A stretch of 32,000 nt of DNA, taken from positions 9,237 through 41,236 of the forward strand of contig NZ_JAHDSX010000020.1 in assembly GCF_020969955.1 (NCBI RefSeq), written 5' to 3'. The position numbers were made by a program, and so were the translations under genes. The notes below the pieces were generated by a model, which was not told where the DNA came from, searched no databases, and worked only from the letters and a program-made list of their open reading frames with translations. Origin of the DNA: Allobaculum fili (GTDB taxonomy: Bacteria; Bacillota_I; Bacilli_A; Erysipelotrichales; Erysipelotrichaceae). Positions 21,499 to 31,734 of the stretch are shown in pieces (within the stretch, counting starts at the first letter, position 1; each line of letters opens with the position of its first letter).

Positions 21499-21783
21499 AT
21501 GAATAAAAACTCTCTGCGCCGCAAATCCCGCATTGAACTTCTCGAACTGCTGCTCGCCTCCCGGGAAGAAAATCAGAAGCTTCGCAAGGAAAACGAAGAA
21601 CTGAAAGCTCAGCTTGCGCAGCGACAGATCCATCTGGAAAACAGCGAATCGCTGGCACATGCGGCCTTGAAACTGGCCGGCGTATTTGAAGCAGCCGATC
21701 AGGCAGCTGCTCTCTATCTCGAAAGTCTGAAGGAGAATTATTCCGATCATGAATCAGAAGAATGCACCGAAGAAGCCCTCTGA
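21499..21783 (+). CDS. Small coiled-coil protein (94 aa), unknown function
   Basis: The basic N-terminus is followed by a heptad-like segment LLELLLASREENQKLRKENEELKAQLAQRQ, then SLAHAALKLAGVFEAADQAAALYLESL. Overlaps the signal peptidase gene by 35 nt. Confidence 0.6.
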   Translation: MNKNSLRRKSRIELLELLLASREENQKLRKENEELKAQLAQRQIHLENSESLAHAALKLAGVFEAADQAAALYLESLKENYSDHESEECTEEAL

Positions 21784-22351
21784 TCCAGACATGCCTTCCG
21801 TATCCGAGATCCGAAGCGAAATCGATCGCGTCCGCTATCGAAAACGCTACTGGAAATCGGTTCGCGGCATTCTTCAGACCATCCTGGTCGCGGCAGCGGT
21901 GGCCGTTCTGATTTCCATGTTATGGATGCCCGTTCTGGAAATTTACGGACCAAGCATGGCGCCTTCTCTGGAAGAAGGCGATATCGTTGCCGCCATCAAA
22001 AACAGCAAATTCGAAACGGGCGATGTCATCGCCTTCTACTACAACAACAAAATTCTCGTAAAACGCGTCATGGCCGGTCCAGGCGACTGGATCGACATTC
22101 ACGAAGACGGAACCGTTTTTGTGAATGGAGAAGAAATCGATGAACCCTATCTGACAGACAAAGCGTACGGAGATCCCGATATCGAATTTCCTTATCAAGT
22201 TCCCGAAGGACGCTGGTTCGTTCTCGGCGATCATCGAAGCATTTCCAAGGACTCCCGAAACGCAGAAATCGGCCCTATCGCTTCTGAAGATATTGTTGGA
22301 CGGCTCGTCTTCCGCCTCTGGCCCAACCCAGGACCAGCCGGCGACAGTTAA
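21749..22351 (+). CDS. Signal peptidase I (S26A), pilus-locus associated (SipA/LepA position)
   Basis: 200 aa with one N-terminal TM helix. Box B is GPSMAPSL (Ser nucleophile), box D is LVKRVMAGPGDWI (Lys general base), box E is VLGDHRSISKDSRN. Confidence 0.9.
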   Translation: MNQKNAPKKPSDPDMPSVSEIRSEIDRVRYRKRYWKSVRGILQTILVAAAVAVLISMLWMPVLEIYGPSMAPSLEEGDIVAAIKNSKFETGDVIAFYYNNKILVKRVMAGPGDWIDIHEDGTVFVNGEEIDEPYLTDKAYGDPDIEFPYQVPEGRWFVLGDHRSISKDSRNAEIGPIASEDIVGRLVFRLWPNPGPAGDS

Positions 22352-22676: not shown

Positions 22677-24236
22677 ATGAAATCCAGAAAATTTTTAATT
22701 TCATCCGCGATTGCCCTTTCGACAATGCTCGGAACTGCAGCGCCGATGATGAATGCGATGCCGATCTCAGCAACGACAGTAACTGTCTCCAATTTTGCAG
22801 AGGGACATGCTTTTACGGCTTATCAGATTTTTACCGGTAAGCTGGAAGGCGACAAACTTGTGGACATCGAGTGGGGAACCAGCGCTGATACAACAGAGCA
22901 AGCTGCAATTATTGCTGCATTAAAAGGAGACGATAGCCCGCTTTCGGCAGACAAAATTACAGCACTCGGAGACAACCCGAATGCTGCGGCTGTGGCTAAC
23001 GCAATTGATGGTCTTAATGCAGAACAAAGCCTGGCACTTGCTAAATTACTGCATCCAATTCTGACCGAGAATGGAAAAGCAATTACATCCAACACAACTG
23101 ACCTCACACCTGGCTACTATCTGATCAAAGATACAACAGCGGTTGATTCATCTGCCGATGACGTTATTGGTTTGAGCATTCTCCAGGTCGCCAATACTGA
23201 TGTAGTAATTACACCGAAAAACGCGAAACCAACCGTCGATAAAGAAGTTAGCGACAACGACAATCATGATGAGAGCAATACAGCAGGCTGGGGGGAAACG
23301 GCTGACCATGAAATTGGCGACACCTTCCAGTTCAGACTGACTGCTACAGTTGCACAGTATGCGGACATCAAAAACTACGATTCTTATAAGCTGGTATTCC
23401 ATGACACGCTGAGTGCTGGAATTGACTATGTCAGTGAAGGCAATCTGACTGCAGAGATGTTCGTTGGCGACAATACTACTGCAATTGAAGTACCAACAAC
23501 TACTGCAAAGGATGGCCAGAATCTGACAGTAACTATCGATAACCTGAAAGCTCATTTGCCTGCGGAAATTCAGGAGAATGACGCAATCAGCGTTGTTGTT
23601 ACCTACAATGCCAAACTGAATGCGCACGCTATGGTTGCTGAAAGTGGCGTTTCTGGGCTCTATAACAACAACAAGGTTTATCTGGAGTACTCCAACAATC
23701 CGAATGGGGAAGGAACAGGACAGACCAAAGAGGACTATGTATATGTCTTCACGTATAAACTGACCAACACGAAGACAGATAACATGGGAAACACCCTTCA
23801 GGGAGCCGAGTTCGTTCTTAAGAAAGGCGATCGGTTTGCTGCATTCACTAACGGCATTTTTAGCGGCTGGTCGACAGCGCAGGACGACACAACGAAGCTC
23901 ACATCTGGTGAAGATGGAACGTTCGTACTGACTGGTCTGGATGCAGGAACATACACCCTTGTCGAAACGAAAGCTCCGGAAGGTTATAAGCTGGCTGCTG
24001 ATACGACGATTACAATCACAGCCAGCCATAAAGAAGATGACGGCGGAGCTGCAGCGACAGTAACTTTATCAGGCGAGAACCACGAAGGTGCTACGGTAGT
24101 TGACTCCAAAATCTCCAACCTGCCTGAAACCGGCGGCATGGGTACGACTCTGTTCTATGCAGCTGGCGGAATTCTTGCTGCTGGCGCAGTAATCGCACTG
24201 GCTGCAGGCAAGAAAGCAAAAAAAGAAGAAGACTAA
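22677..24236 (+). CDS. LPXTG-anchored backbone (major) pilin, isopeptide/Cna-B-type Ig-fold protein
   Basis: 519 aa with a signal peptide. AFTAYQIFTGKL N-domain signature, pilin-motif-like TDVVITPKNAKP, E-box YTLVETKAPEGYKL. Sorting signal is LPETGG plus a hydrophobic span plus KKAKKEED. Confidence 0.88.
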   Translation: MKSRKFLISSAIALSTMLGTAAPMMNAMPISATTVTVSNFAEGHAFTAYQIFTGKLEGDKLVDIEWGTSADTTEQAAIIAALKGDDSPLSADKITALGDNPNAAAVANAIDGLNAEQSLALAKLLHPILTENGKAITSNTTDLTPGYYLIKDTTAVDSSADDVIGLSILQVANTDVVITPKNAKPTVDKEVSDNDNHDESNTAGWGETADHEIGDTFQFRLTATVAQYADIKNYDSYKLVFHDTLSAGIDYVSEGNLTAEMFVGDNTTAIEVPTTTAKDGQNLTVTIDNLKAHLPAEIQENDAISVVVTYNAKLNAHAMVAESGVSGLYNNNKVYLEYSNNPNGEGTGQTKEDYVYVFTYKLTNTKTDNMGNTLQGAEFVLKKGDRFAAFTNGIFSGWSTAQDDTTKLTSGEDGTFVLTGLDAGTYTLVETKAPEGYKLAADTTITITASHKEDDGGAAATVTLSGENHEGATVVDSKISNLPETGGMGTTLFYAAGGILAAGAVIALAAGKKAKKEED

Positions 24237-24345: not shown

Positions 24346-25194
24346 TTGAAGTTTTTAAGGAAACATCTAAGAACAATTCTGATTCTTGTCATTCTCATCG
24401 CCGGGCTTGGTCTTCTGGCCTATCCAAGTTTTTCAAACTGGTGGAACACCACGCTTGGATCGCATTCCATTGCCCATTATGAGCAGGCGGTTGTGGAAAC
24501 AGATGAAGAAGATTTGAAAGCCATGCGCGAACAGGCCAATGCCTATAATACGGATCTTTTAACAAGAGCAGACCGCTATCATCCAACCCCAGAACAGCAT
24601 GCGCAGTACGGCGAACTGTTAAAAATCGGGGATTCAACGGTCATGGGTTCGATTTCGATCCCGCGAATCAAGGTGAATCTTCCGATTTACCACGGAACTT
24701 CCGAAGACGTCCTGGCTGCAGGAGCCGGTCATCTGGAAGGTTCGTCTCTTCCGGTTGGCGGAACGGGAACGCATGCGGTCATTACAGGGCATAGAGGCCT
24801 TCCTTCCGCAAAGCTGTTCACAGATCTGGATCAGCTGGAAGAAGGAGACCTTTTCGTTTTAAACGTTCTAGGCGAAAAACTGACGTACGCGGTGGACTCG
24901 ATTCGAATCGTTTTGCCGGCTGAACTCGATCAGCTGACGATCGATCCGACGAAAGACCAGGTCACTCTGGTTACCTGCACTCCGTATGGAATCAACACGC
25001 ACCGCATTTTAATCACGGGTCTGCGTACGGAAAACGTTGAGGAGTGGTCACTGGATCAGGAAGCGGGAATGATCGACGAGAAAATCGTCGCCCTCTGGAT
25101 CGGCGCCATTATTCTCGGGGTCCTGCTCATCGTGATGCTTATAAAGACAAGAAAGCCAAAGTCGAAGAAAGGAGAAGCCGATGACTCGATTTAA
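24346..25194 (+). CDS. srtC: Class C (pilin-polymerising) sortase
   Basis: 282 aa. TTG start 6 nt after GAGGAGGAG. N-terminal TM and C-terminal TM (ALWIGAIILGVLLIVMLI) are typical of class C. Catalytic His is in THAVITGHRG, Cys in TLVTCTPYG, Arg in HRILITG. Confidence 0.92.
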   Translation: MKFLRKHLRTILILVILIAGLGLLAYPSFSNWWNTTLGSHSIAHYEQAVVETDEEDLKAMREQANAYNTDLLTRADRYHPTPEQHAQYGELLKIGDSTVMGSISIPRIKVNLPIYHGTSEDVLAAGAGHLEGSSLPVGGTGTHAVITGHRGLPSAKLFTDLDQLEEGDLFVLNVLGEKLTYAVDSIRIVLPAELDQLTIDPTKDQVTLVTCTPYGINTHRILITGLRTENVEEWSLDQEAGMIDEKIVALWIGAIILGVLLIVMLIKTRKPKSKKGEADDSI

Positions 25195-25981
25195 AAAACT
25201 GTTTGGAATTGTTTTGACTCTCATGCTGATGGTGCCGATGACAGTTCGAGCCGCAGAAGAAATTGATCTGAGTCGAACAGGTTCTCTGCAGATGACGATT
25301 CACAAAGCCGATGGAACGCCAATCTCCGGCGGTTCCATGACGATCATTCCGGTGGCGGATATCGTTCTCGACGAAGAAACCAATCCAAAATTTCAACTGA
25401 ATGAAACGTTTGCCGAAACGAATGCGGATCTTTCCAACCCGCAAAGAGAAGCGGTCATTGAATATCTGGAAGATTTCGTAAAGAAACACAAGATCGAGGG
25501 AACCACACAGACTGTGGATCGTAACGGCATCGCCAGCTTTGGCGAGTGTCCGTTAGGTCTGTATCTCGTAATGCAGAACGAAGCGTCTCCTGGCTACAAG
25601 CCCATCCGTTCGTTTTTAATTTCGGTTCCAAATTTCGATGAAGAAGAACAGACCTATACCTACGATGTAATCGCCCTGCCGAAAATGAATACGGATATTG
25701 AGATTGACAGTTCTACATCGTCCTCGGATTCGTCTTCTTCCGAATCTTCTTCGAGTTCAACTTCATCGAGCATGAGCTCTTCAAACTCAGACGATTCATC
25801 GCATTCATCCAGTAAATCGACCAGCAATTCCATCAGCAGCTCAAACAGCGCACCCAGACCGAAAAAAACGCCGCCAACAGGAGCGCAGACCGGAATGACG
25901 CTTTTTGAAAGCCTGTTTATTCTTTCCGGTCTTCTGCTGATCGGTCTGTATTTCCTGAAGCGAAAAGAAACATCGAAATAA
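25181..25981 (+). CDS. Minor pilin (candidate basal/anchor pilin) with a Ser-rich stalk and non-canonical TPPTG sorting signal
   Basis: 266 aa with a signal peptide (VRA|AEE). One Ig/Cna-B-like domain carries an E-box-like YLVMQNEASPGYKP and ALPKMN. A run of about 48 aa is almost pure Ser/Asp/Thr. Then TPPTG plus a hydrophobic span plus KRKETSK. Overlaps srtC by 14 nt. Confidence 0.75.
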   Translation: MTRFKKLFGIVLTLMLMVPMTVRAAEEIDLSRTGSLQMTIHKADGTPISGGSMTIIPVADIVLDEETNPKFQLNETFAETNADLSNPQREAVIEYLEDFVKKHKIEGTTQTVDRNGIASFGECPLGLYLVMQNEASPGYKPIRSFLISVPNFDEEEQTYTYDVIALPKMNTDIEIDSSTSSSDSSSSESSSSSTSSSMSSSNSDDSSHSSSKSTSNSISSSNSAPRPKKTPPTGAQTGMTLFESLFILSGLLLIGLYFLKRKETSK

Positions 25982-26115: not shown

Positions 26116-29100
26116 ATGTCTGGAATGAAAAGATTCTTTCAGAAAAAACATCCGATTTTAATCCGAGTCCTTTCCATACTGACTCTTTTTGCGACTGCCT
26201 ATACGCTGATTCTGCCTGCAACAGCCCTGGCAAGACCTCAGTACTACTGCGGTATGGAAAAACATGTACACAGCGATACCTGCGAGGAGAACTGCACCCG
26301 GATTGAACACGAACATACACGACAATGCGAAGCCAACCTCGAGGCGGATGTGGAAGATGAATCCGTCTGGACAGCGGCTTTTGCGGATGTAATGGCTGAG
26401 CCGTCTTCTTCTGGCAAAGCGGCAGCAATCGCTCTTTCGCAAGTTGGCTCACATGTAAGTTCATCTAACTTTCAGGTTCTTGAAGACGGCAGTGAAGCAC
26501 CATATTCCCGATATGGAGCCTGGGAAGGAAATCCGTATACGACAAACCTTCAGGAAAGCTTCCTTCGTTTTGTCTACAGCTATGCCGGAGCAGATATGAG
26601 CAGCTTTGCCAGTCAGTCCGTCAAGGATTGGATGGATCCTCTTCTTGAGGGCGGCCTGCTGCGTTCGGCTGACCAGGCATCGGAAGGCGATCTCGCCTTT
26701 GTCGAAGATGAGGGAAAACTGAAAGGCGCGGTTGTCATTAAAGGAAATGAAGAAGCGCTGGATGTTGTGGAAGCCGATGAGGGAGAGATCGTTTCCAAAT
26801 CGGTAGCCAATGAACATGTCTATGGAACGGTTCGTGTTCTTTTAGATGCCGATCCCGCTGAAGCAGCTTCAACAGATGCTTCCACGGAAGAAAGCGCAGC
26901 GTCAAAAAAAGCGGAGAACGCAAATCCGGCTGCCGCAAATCAGGTCCTCTCTTACACACCTGCTCAAATTTCACCGCAGGCTGACGAAACAGCAGAGTCC
27001 TGTCCTGCAGCCAAATTTCCAGAATCGAATCCGGAAGGAAATCTCGGCGACGAGGGATATAACGAACATCCGACTGCAGCGAAGATTTATTATCGCTATC
27101 CTCAGAATTCAGGAAACACCCCGACCGAATGGACAGAAATTGAGCCGGATGACGATAACACGGAAAATGACATTACGTACAAGATGAACGTCGAGTTCAA
27201 AATGGTCGTGAATTATGAAAATCTGAAATACACAACCATCGTGGACAACAATCATTCATTCTATTATTCGATTCCTGCTTTCCTCCATTCCAATATGGCA
27301 GCAGAGGGAACGCCTCTCATGCACACCTTCGAAAGAGAAGATGGATCAACGAAGACAATCGAACTGGGAAGACTTCATGCCTGTCCAACAGAAGATCATC
27401 TCCATATCGATTACAGCAACTATCTGGAACTGGAAGAAAATGATATTAAAACAGGTCAATTCGAATATTCGCTTTTAGCCAATCGAGAAGAAATCTGGGA
27501 AAACCCGAATCAGGAATACCAGATTGGAGATAAAAACTACACCTTTAAGTTTGATACCTTGTCCAGCTACAACGATGTGACCGTCCACGATTTCAAAAAA
27601 GCAAAAAATCCAGAAGGCGGCAATCACGAGAACTATTCCTATGACGAAGAGGGCAACACAATCATTCATTATCAGATCAGCTTTGTGACGGATGATCAGA
27701 TTGCTCCCGATGCAATCGTCGATGACTGGTGGCCCAACTACAGCTCATGGAGCCAGAAATTTAAAGAAGGTTTTACCCCTTATGAAAATATTCAGTTTTT
27801 CTCCGTTGCAAGGGATGGAACCGCGACGGAGATTCCACAGGATCAGTACAGCTGCGTTCTGAGCCGGAATGGCTCCAGTGACCCGCTTGAACTTACGTAT
27901 CACCCCGTAACGAATCCAAAAGAAACTGTAACGCATACGGTAGAAGGCGCACCGGCGCCGCGTGCAGGGTTTTATCTAGGAACGCTGCAGCCCAATACGC
28001 AGTACAGACTGACTTATACCGCCAAATATTCGAAAAACGCGCTAAATCATGGTGTACAGGACATTCGAAACGATTCACGCATTCGATTTGGTACGAGCGA
28101 TGGCAGAGGCTATGACTGGGAAGATGACCGGCTTCAAAGCACGCTTACCGTTGGGAAATCCAATCTTGGACAGGAAACAAGGACGGATGACGACGGGAAC
28201 CTCTACCTGACCTACAAACTCAGCGTCATTGCCGGCGAATACAACATGGATGACTGGCCTGTCGGCGTTGTCACCGACTACATGAACTTTCAGGTGGACC
28301 ATGTGGTGCAGCCTGGCTACTTGTCCTATGTCTCCATGGTGGACTGCCAGTCTTCATCCGATGACCAGAATTACACCTCTATTCCTATAAATGAAGTAAC
28401 TTTTACAGACCAGGATAATGGAACAATTCGCGAATACCGGATCCCAGCACCTGAAACCATGTCGAGGGGCCAGCGTTACTACATTAAATGCCAAATCCGG
28501 ATTGACCGGGAACTGATGGTGAAAATGGCCACAGAGAATAAGGAACAGATGACGTATACCAACCTGGCGTATACAGGCGACACGTACAGCAGCTCAGGAC
28601 CGCATTCGGGAACCGTTTCTCAGAACATTCAGAAATCTGAGATTGTAACCAAAGCCAAGGGCGAAATGCTGACAGAAAACACGCCGATGACCATGACCGG
28701 CGATGTTTACGATGCAGCGGGTCAGAAGACGAATGTCACTGAATTCACAGTTCCCATCCACTCCGTACAGTACTCCATCAAAATCAACGAAGATGGAAAG
28801 GCAAATGTAGGATCGGCTGCTCTGACCGACGAGCTTTCCGTCAGCGGAACCATTTCCGATCAGTTCAGCTTTACAGGCTATGCAGCTCTGAAAGTTTATG
28901 ACGGCCGACAGGATCCTGGAAAAGAAGCGATGGGGACGATCTGGTTCAAACTGCCGGACGACCAGCAGAGTTTTCAGTTTGATCTTTCCAAATACAAGGC
29001 TTCAGTGGATGAGATAAAAGGGGCACACACACCGGAACACGCACTCAGCTACGAACTGATTTACTATGTTCGCGCGAAAGACGGTGCGGATAACCTGATG

Positions 29101-31734
29101 CTTACAAACGAACTGAATGGTTCCGTCGGCGTAGGCATTGGAGACAGTGTAGTCCCTGTGGAGCAGCACATTCACGTTTCCCATCTGATCGTTACAAGTG
29201 AAGAACTGAGCGCGGTAAAACGCGGCGTCTCTTATCTCAGCACGCAGGAAGATCATGAGGCCAATGGTACATGGAAAGCCGGTCGACAAATCTGGCTGGT
29301 TGAGGTCAGCGGATCGACGATCAGCAAAGAATCAACCCTTTCGGATACCCTTACCAATCAGACGAATTTGTCGGGCGAGTACTTCACCCATTACGTACCA
29401 GGAGAATCCGTGATTGGTCTGTACAGAGGAACCCTTGAATTCGCGTTTGACGGCACCCAGAATATCGAGGGAGATGTCAGTCATACCTCGACGAGCTATC
29501 CAGCAGGCAGCTTGCCTTCTTATACGTATCAGGATTTTTTAACTGCCTTTAACAGCCAGACAAGCCGGATTGATGAAGATCTGTATACAGTGACGTATGC
29601 TTCCGATAATCGAACCGTAAACATCCGGTTTAAAGAGAACTATTCTTTAATCGATGAAAATGGAGATAAGCAGAAGCTGTATATTCTGCTCCAGTCCACG
29701 CCTGATGAAAATTCGTTCAACGGAGGGGAGCAGGATCTGATCTGGAAACGCAATCAGGCCAATATATCCACTGGAAATGGTTTTTCAGCCATTCAGGGAA
29801 ATGAAACGAAAAAGCTGGCGGATGCGCAATATGGTTTCCGTTCGTACTACAGCATCCATAAAAGTGCCGGAAGCCGGTTCGCGTATCAGAACGGCGAGTT
29901 TAAAAAGCTGGATGATTCAAATCTGAACAGTGTTCTTTCTCTATTCAATACAAATCTCAAGCCGATTCTGGATGAAAAGATTGCGGACGGCGAACTGTCG
30001 AATCATGAAATTTACGATGACTGGACCCTTCTTGTAAACAGACAGGGCGGTGATACAAATTCGAATACCCCTTACTCTGGAACGTTCAAAATTGTGGATA
30101 CGATTTCTGATAATGCAAGTTTCGTAGGAGCCTTCCTGGCGAATACTGGCGAAAATCAGCCGACCATCGACAGCATTACCGTTGAAGGGCAGAAGGTAAC
30201 GATTATTGTCAGCAACGTTAGTCCTCGCCAGGCTTTCACCATCCATTTGATTTCCAAGCTGAATGTGGACTGGGATGAAGCGATCGCATCGGATTCTCGA
30301 ATTTCCGTGGTGAACCATGTTGACCTGTATCATGACCAGAACCGAATTGGAGTCGACGAAGAGACGAAAAATACGAAACTGTCCAATCCAATTTCGAAAG
30401 ATTCCGCAACGCTGGTCGACGATACAACTGCACTTTCCGGGAAATCGACGATTGAATACTCGATTGATCTCAATGAAAATCGACTGGATCTGATTGAGAG
30501 TGCAGATACCATCGATCTGCAGGATACGTATGATCCGGATGTCATTGAAATCATTCCAGATACGATTCAGGTCACAGCAGATGGAGCAGCGTATACCGAC
30601 TTTACGGTTGAATTCCGTAAAGAAGAAGGAACTGTCATCATTCGTAACCTTCCGGATCAGAAACGAATTCACATTACGTATTCCGCTTCTCTTCAGGTTC
30701 CGCCTGGAGAAAATTCATTCTCCATCAGTAACAGCTGCACGTGGCTGGGCTATGGAAAAGACGCACCATCTTCTACGTTTACCAAGTGGGCCACCAATAC
30801 GATTGGCGGTACTTCATCGAGCGTGAACATCACCCCGAAAGTAACCCTGAAAAAAGTCGACGCCAACAATGCCACGCAGGGCCTTGCCGGAGCAACGTTT
30901 TCATTCACTGCGGGAACGGTGACGAATGGGGTGTTTAAAGCGAATGAAAATAACAGTTATTCTTTCACTGCCACTACGGATTCGAACGGGCAGATTATCG
31001 CAAACGAAGCGCATGGAAATAAACTGGAGCCGAATATCTGGTACAAAGTGGAAGAAACGAGCGTACCGGCCGGATACGATCCGAATTCGATCGAAGATCC
31101 TCAATACTTCTATATTTATAAGGATTTACAGCATTTCCCGGCGGAAAACGAGCGCCCGAGAGAAGGGAGGGTGAACATTTCCGAACTGAGTCCGGATAAG
31201 ATTCTTTATCTGACTTTCACAAACAAGAAACCTGTCTTCTCAATCACGATTCGCAAATCGTTCTCTGAAGCCGGTCTTCTGCCAGGAAACTATACCTTTG
31301 GCGTTTATGACCGAGAATCCGATCCGAACGATGCATCACAGCAGCCGCTTAAGAAAGTGACCATTACGGTCACACCGCAGGATGCTTCCGACTCGACGGA
31401 AAAGACAGCGGATGCGGTGATCGACAATCTGGAAATCCGGAACGATCCGTATTACGTGTATGAGCTCGGCGAAGATGGCAAGCCCTGCCCTAAATACTGG
31501 ACTTCTTCGGCAAACGACCAGCTTTTCGAAGTCATCTATCCGGCAAACGGCAATGGGGTCACGTATTCCAATGCGTCCGAGACGGATCGCAATGTGATCT
31601 TTGAAGTGCAGAACCATCCGATTTACGAACTTCCAGAGACTGGCGGTGTTGGTACGTCTATCTTCTATGCAGGCGGAAGTGCACTGGTTCTGAGTGCAGC
31701 CTGTCTTGTGCTGCTTCTTCGCCGCAAGGATTAA
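26116..31734 (+). CDS. Giant LPXTG surface adhesin (1872 aa), candidate pilus tip adhesin
   Basis: RBS GGAGGA. Signal peptide ...LPATALA|RP. N-terminal Cys/His cluster and a CHAP-like segment, then a long Thr/Ser/Asn/Asp/Tyr-rich region. C-terminal Cna-B-like modules (VTLKKVDANNATQGLAGATFSF ... WYKVEETSVPAGYD; ITIRKSF...YTFGVYD). Sorting signal is LPETGG plus a hydrophobic span plus RRKD. Confidence 0.88.
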   Translation: MSGMKRFFQKKHPILIRVLSILTLFATAYTLILPATALARPQYYCGMEKHVHSDTCEENCTRIEHEHTRQCEANLEADVEDESVWTAAFADVMAEPSSSGKAAAIALSQVGSHVSSSNFQVLEDGSEAPYSRYGAWEGNPYTTNLQESFLRFVYSYAGADMSSFASQSVKDWMDPLLEGGLLRSADQASEGDLAFVEDEGKLKGAVVIKGNEEALDVVEADEGEIVSKSVANEHVYGTVRVLLDADPAEAASTDASTEESAASKKAENANPAAANQVLSYTPAQISPQADETAESCPAAKFPESNPEGNLGDEGYNEHPTAAKIYYRYPQNSGNTPTEWTEIEPDDDNTENDITYKMNVEFKMVVNYENLKYTTIVDNNHSFYYSIPAFLHSNMAAEGTPLMHTFEREDGSTKTIELGRLHACPTEDHLHIDYSNYLELEENDIKTGQFEYSLLANREEIWENPNQEYQIGDKNYTFKFDTLSSYNDVTVHDFKKAKNPEGGNHENYSYDEEGNTIIHYQISFVTDDQIAPDAIVDDWWPNYSSWSQKFKEGFTPYENIQFFSVARDGTATEIPQDQYSCVLSRNGSSDPLELTYHPVTNPKETVTHTVEGAPAPRAGFYLGTLQPNTQYRLTYTAKYSKNALNHGVQDIRNDSRIRFGTSDGRGYDWEDDRLQSTLTVGKSNLGQETRTDDDGNLYLTYKLSVIAGEYNMDDWPVGVVTDYMNFQVDHVVQPGYLSYVSMVDCQSSSDDQNYTSIPINEVTFTDQDNGTIREYRIPAPETMSRGQRYYIKCQIRIDRELMVKMATENKEQMTYTNLAYTGDTYSSSGPHSGTVSQNIQKSEIVTKAKGEMLTENTPMTMTGDVYDAAGQKTNVTEFTVPIHSVQYSIKINEDGKANVGSAALTDELSVSGTISDQFSFTGYAALKVYDGRQDPGKEAMGTIWFKLPDDQQSFQFDLSKYKASVDEIKGAHTPEHALSYELIYYVRAKDGADNLMLTNELNGSVGVGIGDSVVPVEQHIHVSHLIVTSEELSAVKRGVSYLSTQEDHEANGTWKAGRQIWLVEVSGSTISKESTLSDTLTNQTNLSGEYFTHYVPGESVIGLYRGTLEFAFDGTQNIEGDVSHTSTSYPAGSLPSYTYQDFLTAFNSQTSRIDEDLYTVTYASDNRTVNIRFKENYSLIDENGDKQKLYILLQSTPDENSFNGGEQDLIWKRNQANISTGNGFSAIQGNETKKLADAQYGFRSYYSIHKSAGSRFAYQNGEFKKLDDSNLNSVLSLFNTNLKPILDEKIADGELSNHEIYDDWTLLVNRQGGDTNSNTPYSGTFKIVDTISDNASFVGAFLANTGENQPTIDSITVEGQKVTIIVSNVSPRQAFTIHLISKLNVDWDEAIASDSRISVVNHVDLYHDQNRIGVDEETKNTKLSNPISKDSATLVDDTTALSGKSTIEYSIDLNENRLDLIESADTIDLQDTYDPDVIEIIPDTIQVTADGAAYTDFTVEFRKEEGTVIIRNLPDQKRIHITYSASLQVPPGENSFSISNSCTWLGYGKDAPSSTFTKWATNTIGGTSSSVNITPKVTLKKVDANNATQGLAGATFSFTAGTVTNGVFKANENNSYSFTATTDSNGQIIANEAHGNKLEPNIWYKVEETSVPAGYDPNSIEDPQYFYIYKDLQHFPAENERPREGRVNISELSPDKILYLTFTNKKPVFSITIRKSFSEAGLLPGNYTFGVYDRESDPNDASQQPLKKVTITVTPQDASDSTEKTADAVIDNLEIRNDPYYVYELGEDGKPCPKYWTSSANDQLFEVIYPANGNGVTYSNASETDRNVIFEVQNHPIYELPETGGVGTSIFYAGGSALVLSAACLVLLLRRKD

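Follow-up and report, generated by a model that had tools for sequence, protein, structure and literature searches.

A catalytically inactive, CHAP-derived head with a putative Cys/His metal clasp on a predicted sortase-pilus tip adhesin of Allobaculum fili

To our knowledge, the tip adhesins of described sortase-assembled pili use von Willebrand factor A (vWFA), thioester, lectin, or collagen-binding heads. The head of Cpa from Streptococcus pyogenes uses thioester domains, and vWFA heads with a metal ion-dependent adhesion site (MIDAS) depend in part on the metal for their function. In S. pyogenes, the pilus-associated SipA is without the catalytic Ser and Lys. The fibronectin-binding, collagen-binding, T antigen (FCT) pilus system of this species combines a tip adhesin with a shaft and a basal pilin and with SipA, a signal-peptidase-like protein (PMC4049620). 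Outside pili, RipD of Mycobacterium tuberculosis (Rv1566c; PDB 4JXB) is an NlpC/P60 domain with a substituted catalytic triad that binds peptidoglycan without catalysis (PMC12067865). Here we describe a stretch of 32,000 nucleotides from Allobaculum fili (contig NZ_JAHDSX010000020.1, positions 9,237 to 41,236), which we call the window and in which the last gene of a sortase-pilus cluster encodes a giant LPXTG-anchored surface protein, a putative pilus tip adhesin. We consider it probable, at roughly 60%, that the N-terminal part of this adhesin is the distal, metal-clasped, and dead CHAP-derived head of a pilus LPXTG subunit and that it acts as a non-catalytic recognition module.

With the CHAP amidases and endopeptidases (PF05257, clan Peptidase_CA; Lys2972, PDB 8tw1), the head has a papain-like fold in common, the homology being established via family intermediates, and its active relatives keep the layout SQxG ... 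W-C-x-x-F ... GD-x-x-F ... H-V-G-I-V ... I-E-G-N. In contrast to these enzymes, the window copy has Gln in place of Cys and Lys or a gap in place of His, and it has no Pfam match of its own. It adds a loop specific to the family (R-Y-G-x-W...P-Y) and, at the N-terminus, a twin Cys/His knuckle, and it is carried on a ~1600-residue LPXTG stalk in a pilus locus, not joined to cell-wall-binding or lysis modules. The similarity to RipD lies in a papain-like cell-wall hydrolase fold that was retained while the catalytic residues were substituted. However, RipD is a small secreted cell-wall protein of the NlpC/P60 rather than the CHAP branch and is without a Cys/His knuckle, and its peptidoglycan binding is experimental, whereas that of the window head is a prediction. 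The FCT pili (Cpa, SipA/LepA, FctA, SrtC, and FctB) resemble the window locus in the three-pilin cassette, the signal-peptidase-family gene, the pilus sortase, and the use, which is predicted for the window, of the largest LPXTG protein as tip adhesin; the window locus differs in its dead CHAP fold, in an S26 peptidase that keeps the catalytic-type SM and KR motifs, and in a sortase of class C. The vWFA/MIDAS tips (RrgA, EbpA, SpaC, and PilA) also have a large N-terminal head and a CnaB/SpaA-type stalk and are LPXTG-linked to the shaft, but the fold of the window head is wholly different, and its putative clasp is of the Cys2His2 type instead of a MIDAS Mg2+/Mn2+ site. Neither a CHAP- or NlpC-headed pilus tip nor the Cys/His repeat was described in the open-access papers searched, in agreement with a first-pass annotation of the DNA, made from the sequence alone, which knew of no pilus tip adhesin with such a head. 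We class the head type and the unmodeled metal-type clasp as new, and the pilus tip adhesin itself as a protein of known kind that is not categorically new.

The adhesin is encoded by a single open reading frame (ORF; Table 1), and the DNA reads GGAGG as a ribosome-binding site 6 nt upstream of its ATG. Positions 26242-26799, singled out in the first-pass annotation, correspond to residues 43-228, and the peptide strings quoted there are present exactly in the translation. The protein has both a signal peptide and a C-terminal LPXTG sorting signal; the predicted mature N-terminus begins 5 residues ahead of the first Cys (C45), and the sorting signal, LPETGG, is the same as that of the backbone pilin. 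Pfam and NCBIfam recognize just two elements, the LPXTG anchor and a stalk domain of the SpaA type (residues 1575-1668), and return nothing usable for the N-terminal 300 aa, and the body of ~1300 residues is mostly unannotated in Pfam. Antisense and overlapping ORFs are also present across the region; they are unsupported and merely accompany the long coding frame as by-products.

Three independent lines of evidence identify residues ~100-235 as a true homologue of CHAP/NlpC-P60 domains. The first consists of relatives with Cys and His still in place, which match Pfam CHAP. This family was found at E ≤ 0.01 in 15 of the 41 members of the family alignment (A1), with a best E value of 1.4e-12, and six relatives scanned singly scored 34 to 54 bits (cutoff, 26 bits), with weaker matches to NlpC_P60, Amidase_6, and TIGR02594; some relatives are named automatically as "CHAP domain-containing protein" by NCBI. 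Residues 1-300 and 40-240 of the adhesin gave no Pfam match even at E ≤ 1 and thus stay below the CHAP gathering threshold. The second line is a profile built from active members only (A3), which retrieved from the PDB sequences the CHAP endolysin Lys2972 (8tw1_A; E value, 1.2e-3) and placed the family W-C on the D-C of the enzyme (the Cys of its DCSG segment) and H-V-G on H-V-G; the window domain scores 69.4 bits against this profile. Chance-level matches were all that PDB sequence searches gave for the window segment, for the full-length protein, for the A1 profile, and for the relative P0083; only A3 reached a CHAP endolysin, and a word-indexed homologue search with the window segment returned the segment itself and nothing else.

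The third line is structural. AlphaFold2 (AF2) modeled residues 40-240 on the A1 alignment with a predicted local distance difference test score (pLDDT) of 95.7 and a predicted template modeling score (pTM) of 0.90; the single sequence gave a pLDDT of 37.8. The top Foldseek matches in the PDB were the NlpC/P60 domains of LytE (8i2d) and SagA (6b8c), with a probability of 1.0 and a target-normalized template modeling (TM) score of 0.63, and further matches included Thermus thermophilus NlpC/P60, Cg1735, and RipA. Among viral structures, NlpC/P60, PlyB-like, CHAP, TIGR02594, and peptidase C51 proteins ranked highest (E values, 1.7e-5 to 1e-3; TM scores, 0.5 to 0.67). In the AF2 topology, the Q146 column opens helix 145-156 (model residues 106-117), and the K203 column lies on the next long strand, 201-210 (model residues 162-171). 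The model thus predicts the papain-like alpha+beta layout, with the nucleophile column at the N-terminus of a helix and a following beta-sheet that carries the His column. The first-pass annotation had proposed a CHAP/NlpC-like scaffold and had named structure prediction and Foldseek as ways to check it; both point to the papain-like CHAP/NlpC fold.

As a cysteine peptidase, the head is dead. Two independent alignments, made with MAFFT and hmmsearch, place Gln146 in the nucleophile column, and the column of the catalytic His holds Lys203 (MAFFT) or a gap (hmmsearch), with no His in residues 197-212. No Cys is present anywhere in residues 72-295, and the head can therefore not be a cysteine peptidase; the only His residues between positions 80 and 240 are H113 and H234, both of which lie off the catalytic columns. 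The near-invariant Trp that precedes the nucleophile is Leu145 in the window copy. The initial reading of the sequence had seen QES at the nucleophile position, which the alignments bear out, and had placed the His position at GA(V); the loss of the His holds, whereas its column is Lys203 or a gap, one or two residues earlier. The claim of a pseudo-enzyme withstood a search for intact Cys and His at alternative positions. Since the domain has neither the CHAP Cys nor the CHAP His and stays below the Pfam threshold, we refer to it as CHAP-derived and not as a CHAP enzyme.

To delimit the family, residues 40-240 were searched exhaustively with HMMER against 50%-identity cluster representatives, of which 1705 matched at E ≤ 1e-3 and 745 at E ≤ 1e-10. 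The head is not unique to the window protein and defines a large family, in most members of which it forms the N-terminal part of a protein of 1000 to 3600 aa. Conservation was analyzed in an alignment of the window sequence with 146 relatives (147 sequences in total). The consensus of the main domain reads SQxGYxES..N … G-Y-T-R-Y-G-x-W-Y-G-x-P-Y-G-D-W-[C/S/N/D]-A-M-F-x-S-F-C-L-x-Y-A-G … G-D-L-x-F … D-[H/R/K]-V-G-I-V … I-E-G-[D/N]. The nucleophile Cys was found in 37 of the 147 sequences, 31 of which also have the His; 20 have the complete Cys/His/Glu/Asn set, and most of the rest are truncated. The remaining 110 sequences (~75%) are Cys-less, with S, N, D, Q, A, or T in the nucleophile column. 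In this group the catalytic columns and their immediate neighbors are relaxed, and 34 positions are at least 85% identical to the Cys-bearing group, including all eight knuckle ligands as well as Q109, S115, N118, R132, Y133, G134, W136, Y141, W145, F149, and F152. Furthermore, Asn221 has shifted directionally to Asp in 81% of the Cys-less representatives. The relaxed catalytic columns together with the 34 retained positions thus argue for a pseudo-enzyme that was kept for a non-catalytic job, of which RipD is a precedent. Judged by this conservation in sequence, the family pattern points to a changed function rather than decay, and the role retained by the Cys-less heads is probably ligand binding.

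It is conceivable, although we consider it unlikely, that the head is an evolutionary relic that serves as a folding, secretion, or capping module for incorporation into the tip, and that adhesion is provided by the very large, mostly unannotated body. Such a history would suit the loss of family-invariant residues around the old active site of the window copy (W145L, E114V, and G129P) and the loss of the knuckle in one relative. It is harder to reconcile with 34 positions conserved at 85% or more in 110 Cys-less representatives that share at most 50% identity, given that these positions include surface-loop aromatics and Arg132, beyond the usual needs of fold maintenance, and with the location of the head at the extreme N-terminus, which corresponds to the distal end.

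The association with pili was assessed by a scan of one genome per species, seeded by the pattern Y[ST]RYG[AQ]W[AEC][GN] from an alignment narrower than A1 (A2). The scan returned 52 related loci in Lachnospiraceae, Blautia, Oscillospiraceae, Holdemanella, Allobaculum mucilyticum, and Mogibacterium, as well as in the actinobacterial Coriobacteriaceae, Atopobiaceae, and Adlercreutzia; proportions in this set are biased because the pattern favored Cys-less members over the mostly active "AWYG" ones. Among the loci with flanks, ~30 of the total of 52 have homologues of the four accompanying window genes (S26 peptidase, backbone pilin, class C sortase, minor pilin) next to the head-bearing ORF, which encodes 1000 to 3500 aa and often terminates in LPxTG. 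The pilus-locus context assumed in the first-pass annotation is confirmed, and it is conserved in ~30 other loci. In most related loci the gene right before that of the CHAP head is an S26 homologue, and this suggests that the peptidase has a dedicated role in processing or as a chaperone. In the window, the genes encoded together with the adhesin include a sortase of class C and a backbone pilin bearing a pilin motif. The protein thus has the testable features of a sortase-pilus tip adhesin, and by analogy it would be located at the tip.

As an alternative to a pilus tip subunit, the gene may encode an independent adhesin that is located beside the pilus operon and anchored to the wall by the housekeeping sortase. 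This would agree with the position of the gene, last in the window cluster and after the putative basal pilin, and with the fact that the argument for a tip position is one of synteny only. However, a giant head protein accompanies the S26, backbone pilin, and class C sortase genes in ~30 loci that vary in gene order and span several phyla-level lineages, and the adhesin and the backbone pilin have matching LPETGG signals. We consequently judge a separate wall-anchored adhesin to be rather improbable.

The Cys/His knuckle was analyzed in the 30-mer YYCGMEKHVHSDTCEENCTRIEHEHTRQCE, which contains four Cys (45, 56, 60, and 71) and four His (50, 52, 65, and 67). An initial count of four Cys and five His in these 30 residues was correct for Cys; a direct count gives four His. 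The whole adhesin has only 12 Cys, and the presence of four of them within one 27-residue span has an expectation of ~1e-3 over the protein; the cluster is therefore not due to chance. Each of the eight knuckle residues is conserved in 130 to 145 of the 147 aligned sequences (88 to 99%; identities of at most ~57%), and each of the two sites offers four conserved ligands, C45/H50/H52/C56 and C60/H65/H67/C71. The conservation of the cluster among homologues had been named as a check in the first-pass annotation, and the near-invariance of all eight residues strengthens its suggestion of a possible metal-binding knuckle. In the AF2 model, the knuckle has a pLDDT of 89 to 94 within a single rigid unit, and H50 and H65, each the first His of its motif, are paired in a beta-bridge. 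On the basis of conservation and model, we infer that the motif pair forms one mini-domain with two Cys2His2 metal sites, probably for zinc, that braces the CHAP fold.

The number of motif copies in 150 relatives is mostly even, with 2 copies in 86, 4 in 24, and 6 in 7 proteins and a maximum of 24. No Pfam or NCBIfam model covers the motif, even when the arrays of 12 to 24 copies in relatives were scanned at E ≤ 10, and Pfam DUF7210 was rejected as the knuckle family because it gave a single sub-threshold match and none on the knuckle arrays. Arrays of up to 24 copies occur in P0004, P0008, and P0025 (for example, residues 600-930 of P0008); the array unit of ~45 residues consists of two motifs (YYCGLEEHxHxExC-DENGxLIC-xxxEHxHxExC), and no Pfam or NCBIfam family covers these arrays. 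In Allobaculum mucilyticum strain 128 (NZ_CP078089.1), a homologous head with 40% identity is without the knuckle, has Gln in the nucleophile column, and keeps the His; its ORF (529 aa) is separate from a body ORF of ~1980 aa, owing to either a frameshift or a real split.

Amplification of the motif to as many as 24 copies and its richness in His and Glu (EEHxH) could also mean that the sites are functional and capture or sense extracellular metal, like the streptococcal histidine-triad (Pht) proteins, instead of being a structural clasp. We find this improbable, since the copies occur mainly in pairs and the pair is modeled as rigid with the CHAP fold (pTM 0.90; H50-H65 beta-bridge). Metal sites with four protein ligands and no open coordination position are typical of structural sites, and the knuckle sites, with four protein ligands each, would leave no such position. 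A head that is still an enzyme by other chemistry, be it an HxH metallohydrolase or acid/base catalysis via Glu147, Glu219, or Asp221, is very improbable: acidic residues and Lys203 do line the former catalytic columns, and the shift from Asn221 to Asp in Cys-less members is directional, but in Cys-less members these columns hold many different residues (D/N/S/Q/A/T with R/K/H/A/S/L/Y/T), unlike what a new catalytic site would show, and the conservation of the knuckle is the same whether or not a relative retains the Cys/His dyad, so that it did not arise as a replacement and is not a substitute catalytic center.

Four observations weigh against the interpretation of the head as a metal-clasped, non-catalytic recognition module at a pilus tip. 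The gene order of the window, with the adhesin last, is unlike that of most related loci, where the adhesin follows the S26 gene. The close relative P0012, with a head of the A. mucilyticum type, is entirely without the knuckle, which is therefore dispensable in at least one lineage. The Foldseek E values against solved structures are modest, the best being 3.5e-3. Lastly, the window copy deviates at five otherwise conserved positions (E114V, G129P, W145L, G220A, and V225I), and its groove may therefore be more degraded than that of most relatives.

Under the proposed recognition-module interpretation, removal of the signal peptide would leave a mature protein that starts with the mini-domain of two interlocked C-x4-H-x-H-x3-C motifs. 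This mini-domain would hold two metal ions, probably Zn2+, each by two Cys and two His, and would pack rigidly on the CHAP/NlpC-P60 fold. The fold would descend from an active peptidoglycan amidase or endopeptidase that lost its Cys (Q146), its His general base (K203), and the Trp (L145), and the resulting head cannot hydrolyze by the CHAP mechanism, while the scaffold and the presumed groove-forming loop (R132-Y-G-x-W136...Y141) are still strongly conserved. The former substrate groove would most likely bind a peptide- or muropeptide-type ligand at the pilus tip, whether this ligand is carried by other bacteria or present in mucus. Thr1842 of the LPETG motif would be linked by the class C sortase to the lysine in the pilin motif of the first backbone subunit, which, by analogy with three-component pili, would place the adhesin at the distal tip.

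Catalytically intact heads occur in the same setting. Four giant proteins with intact heads (P0008, P0088, P0066, and P0046) are each encoded directly downstream of an S26 gene, and pilin and sortase genes follow in L054 and L058, the two intact-head loci with long enough contigs; active and dead heads thus share one cassette, in gut Firmicutes as well as in Coriobacteriia. A location of active heads outside pilus loci, which the short loci L020, L048, L049, and L053 had raised, was rejected in view of these four giants. Judged by their catalytic residues, the heads at L054, L056, L057, and L058 are predicted to be active, and these systems would be pili with an enzymatic tip. The relatives with intact Cys/His/Glu/Asn at these four loci measure 1600 to 2800 aa, LPXTG being confirmed only for P0008, and some intact-head bodies contain extra VWA, LRR, PA14, or fibro-slime domains. 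Relaxase genes were noted at L056 (1852-3258) and L058 (15842-16633), a few kb from the CHAP-head cassettes. The window and the other 56 loci showed none, and a general link to conjugative elements was rejected because relaxase genes lie near only 2 of the 58 loci; a link to mobile elements would be occasional at most. In P0020 (692 aa), residues 371-462 form a CHAP head and residues 607-690 a sortase domain within one called protein, which could be a gene fusion or a read-through or assembly artifact in a metagenomic contig.

The coordinates of the adhesin features and of the other genes of the pilus cluster are compiled in Table 1. Upstream of the cluster are genes for EzrA, a class V aminotransferase, ThiI, and RNA methyltransferases, and these housekeeping genes indicate that the locus is chromosomal. 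The first part of the S26 gene is overlapped by a 94-aa, coiled-coil-like ORF (21499-21783). In the putative basal pilin, the stalk consists of ~50 almost exclusively Ser residues, and the tail is Pro-rich and contains PPTG (PRPKKTPPTGAQTG) instead of a canonical LPXTG, with the membrane anchor following.

Table 1. Features of the adhesin gene and of the pilus cluster (positions in the window)
Feature	Coordinates	Strand	Details and basis
S26 signal peptidase I	21749..22351	+	Pfam; TIGR02227, 121.5 bits; SM and KR catalytic motifs kept
Backbone pilin with ITPKN pilin motif and LPETGG	22677..24236	+	GramPos_pilinBB; SpaA; NF033902, 95.8 bits
Class C (pilus-polymerizing) sortase	24346..25194	+	PF04203; NF033745, 270 bits (cutoff, 160)
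Small pilin-like protein, putative basal pilin; Ser-rich stalk, membrane anchor	25181..25981	+	Weak NF033902 match; homologues in related loci
Giant LPXTG-anchored surface protein gene, putative pilus tip adhesin	26116..31734	+	1872 aa; ORF list; Pfam SpaA and LPXTG anchor; TIGR01167
Signal peptide, residues 1-39 (…LILPATALA/RPQ)	26116..26232	+	Cleavage after ALA39 predicted from AxA rule
Twin Cys/His knuckle, C45-x4-H50-x-H52-x3-C56 and C60-x4-H65-x-H67-x3-C71	26248..26328	+	Alignment; sequence count; model
Connector A77-D78-x-E80...W85, joining knuckle to CHAP-like fold	26344..26370	+	At least 85% conserved, in Cys-bearing and Cys-less groups alike
Catalytically dead CHAP/NlpC-P60-fold domain, residues ~100-235	26413..26820	+	AF2; Foldseek; family homology; CHAP matches in relatives
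Gln146 codon (CAG), column of CHAP nucleophile Cys	26551..26553	+	MAFFT and hmmsearch concur
Lys203 codon (AAA), column of catalytic His	26722..26724	+	MAFFT; gap in hmmsearch
Low-complexity Ala/Ser/Glu/Pro linker, head to body; contains A7 run 26903-26909	26833..27105	+	Translation; DNA
SpaA/prealbumin-like stalk domain, residues 1575-1668	30838..31119	+	Pfam PF17802, 32.7 bits
LPETG sorting motif, followed by hydrophobic span and RRKD tail	31630..31644	+	Sequence; Pfam; NCBIfam

The locus is also contained in the GenBank record CP078088.1 (Allobaculum sp. Allo2; 942283-963215, our locus L001), which is 99.85% identical to the window along 15.7 kb; the differences amount to 1 mismatch and 22 one-base indels. 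Almost every gene is split there, the indels fragmenting the adhesin, the backbone pilin, ThiI, the aminotransferase, and the methyltransferases; the 94-aa ORF is also called in this record (L001 5252-5536). In CP078088.1, the A7 run of the head-to-body linker reads A6, and for this reason the adhesin appears in the record as a hypothetical protein of 310 aa. Given the 22 single-base indels and the many split genes, we attribute this A6 to faulty assembly and reject phase variation at the run; the differences look like homopolymer assembly error. As the public Allo2 record splits the gene into fragments, the adhesin is invisible in the current annotation.

More broadly, and as a tentative possibility at clearly less than even odds, the family may represent a previously unrecognized class of sortase pili of gut anaerobes in Lachnospiraceae, Oscillospiraceae, Erysipelotrichaceae, and Coriobacteriia, with a CHAP hydrolase tip on a twin Cys2His2 clasp, the tip being a live enzyme in about a quarter of the lineages and having been repeatedly converted into a dead binder in the rest. 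If this were true, live tips might cut the wall of neighboring bacteria on contact or drill the pilus through the wall of the producer, and dead tips, including that of Allobaculum, would be a muropeptide or peptide "lectin" for attachment to other cells or to mucus.

With a head that stems from a cell-wall hydrolase, sortase-pilus tips would gain a new principle of recognition and, in the active relatives, an enzymatic variant. The head design is widespread in abundant, poorly studied gut commensals, and Allobaculum is a mucus-associated mucin degrader, so that its adhesins bear on host colonization. The unmodeled extracellular Cys/His repeat deserves a family definition of its own. The family is relevant to Gram-positive pili and to the adhesion of gut commensals, mainly because it is large (at 50% identity, more than 1700 clusters) and includes both tips predicted to be active and dead ones, and it offers a natural series of active and dead members for studying how enzymes become binding modules.

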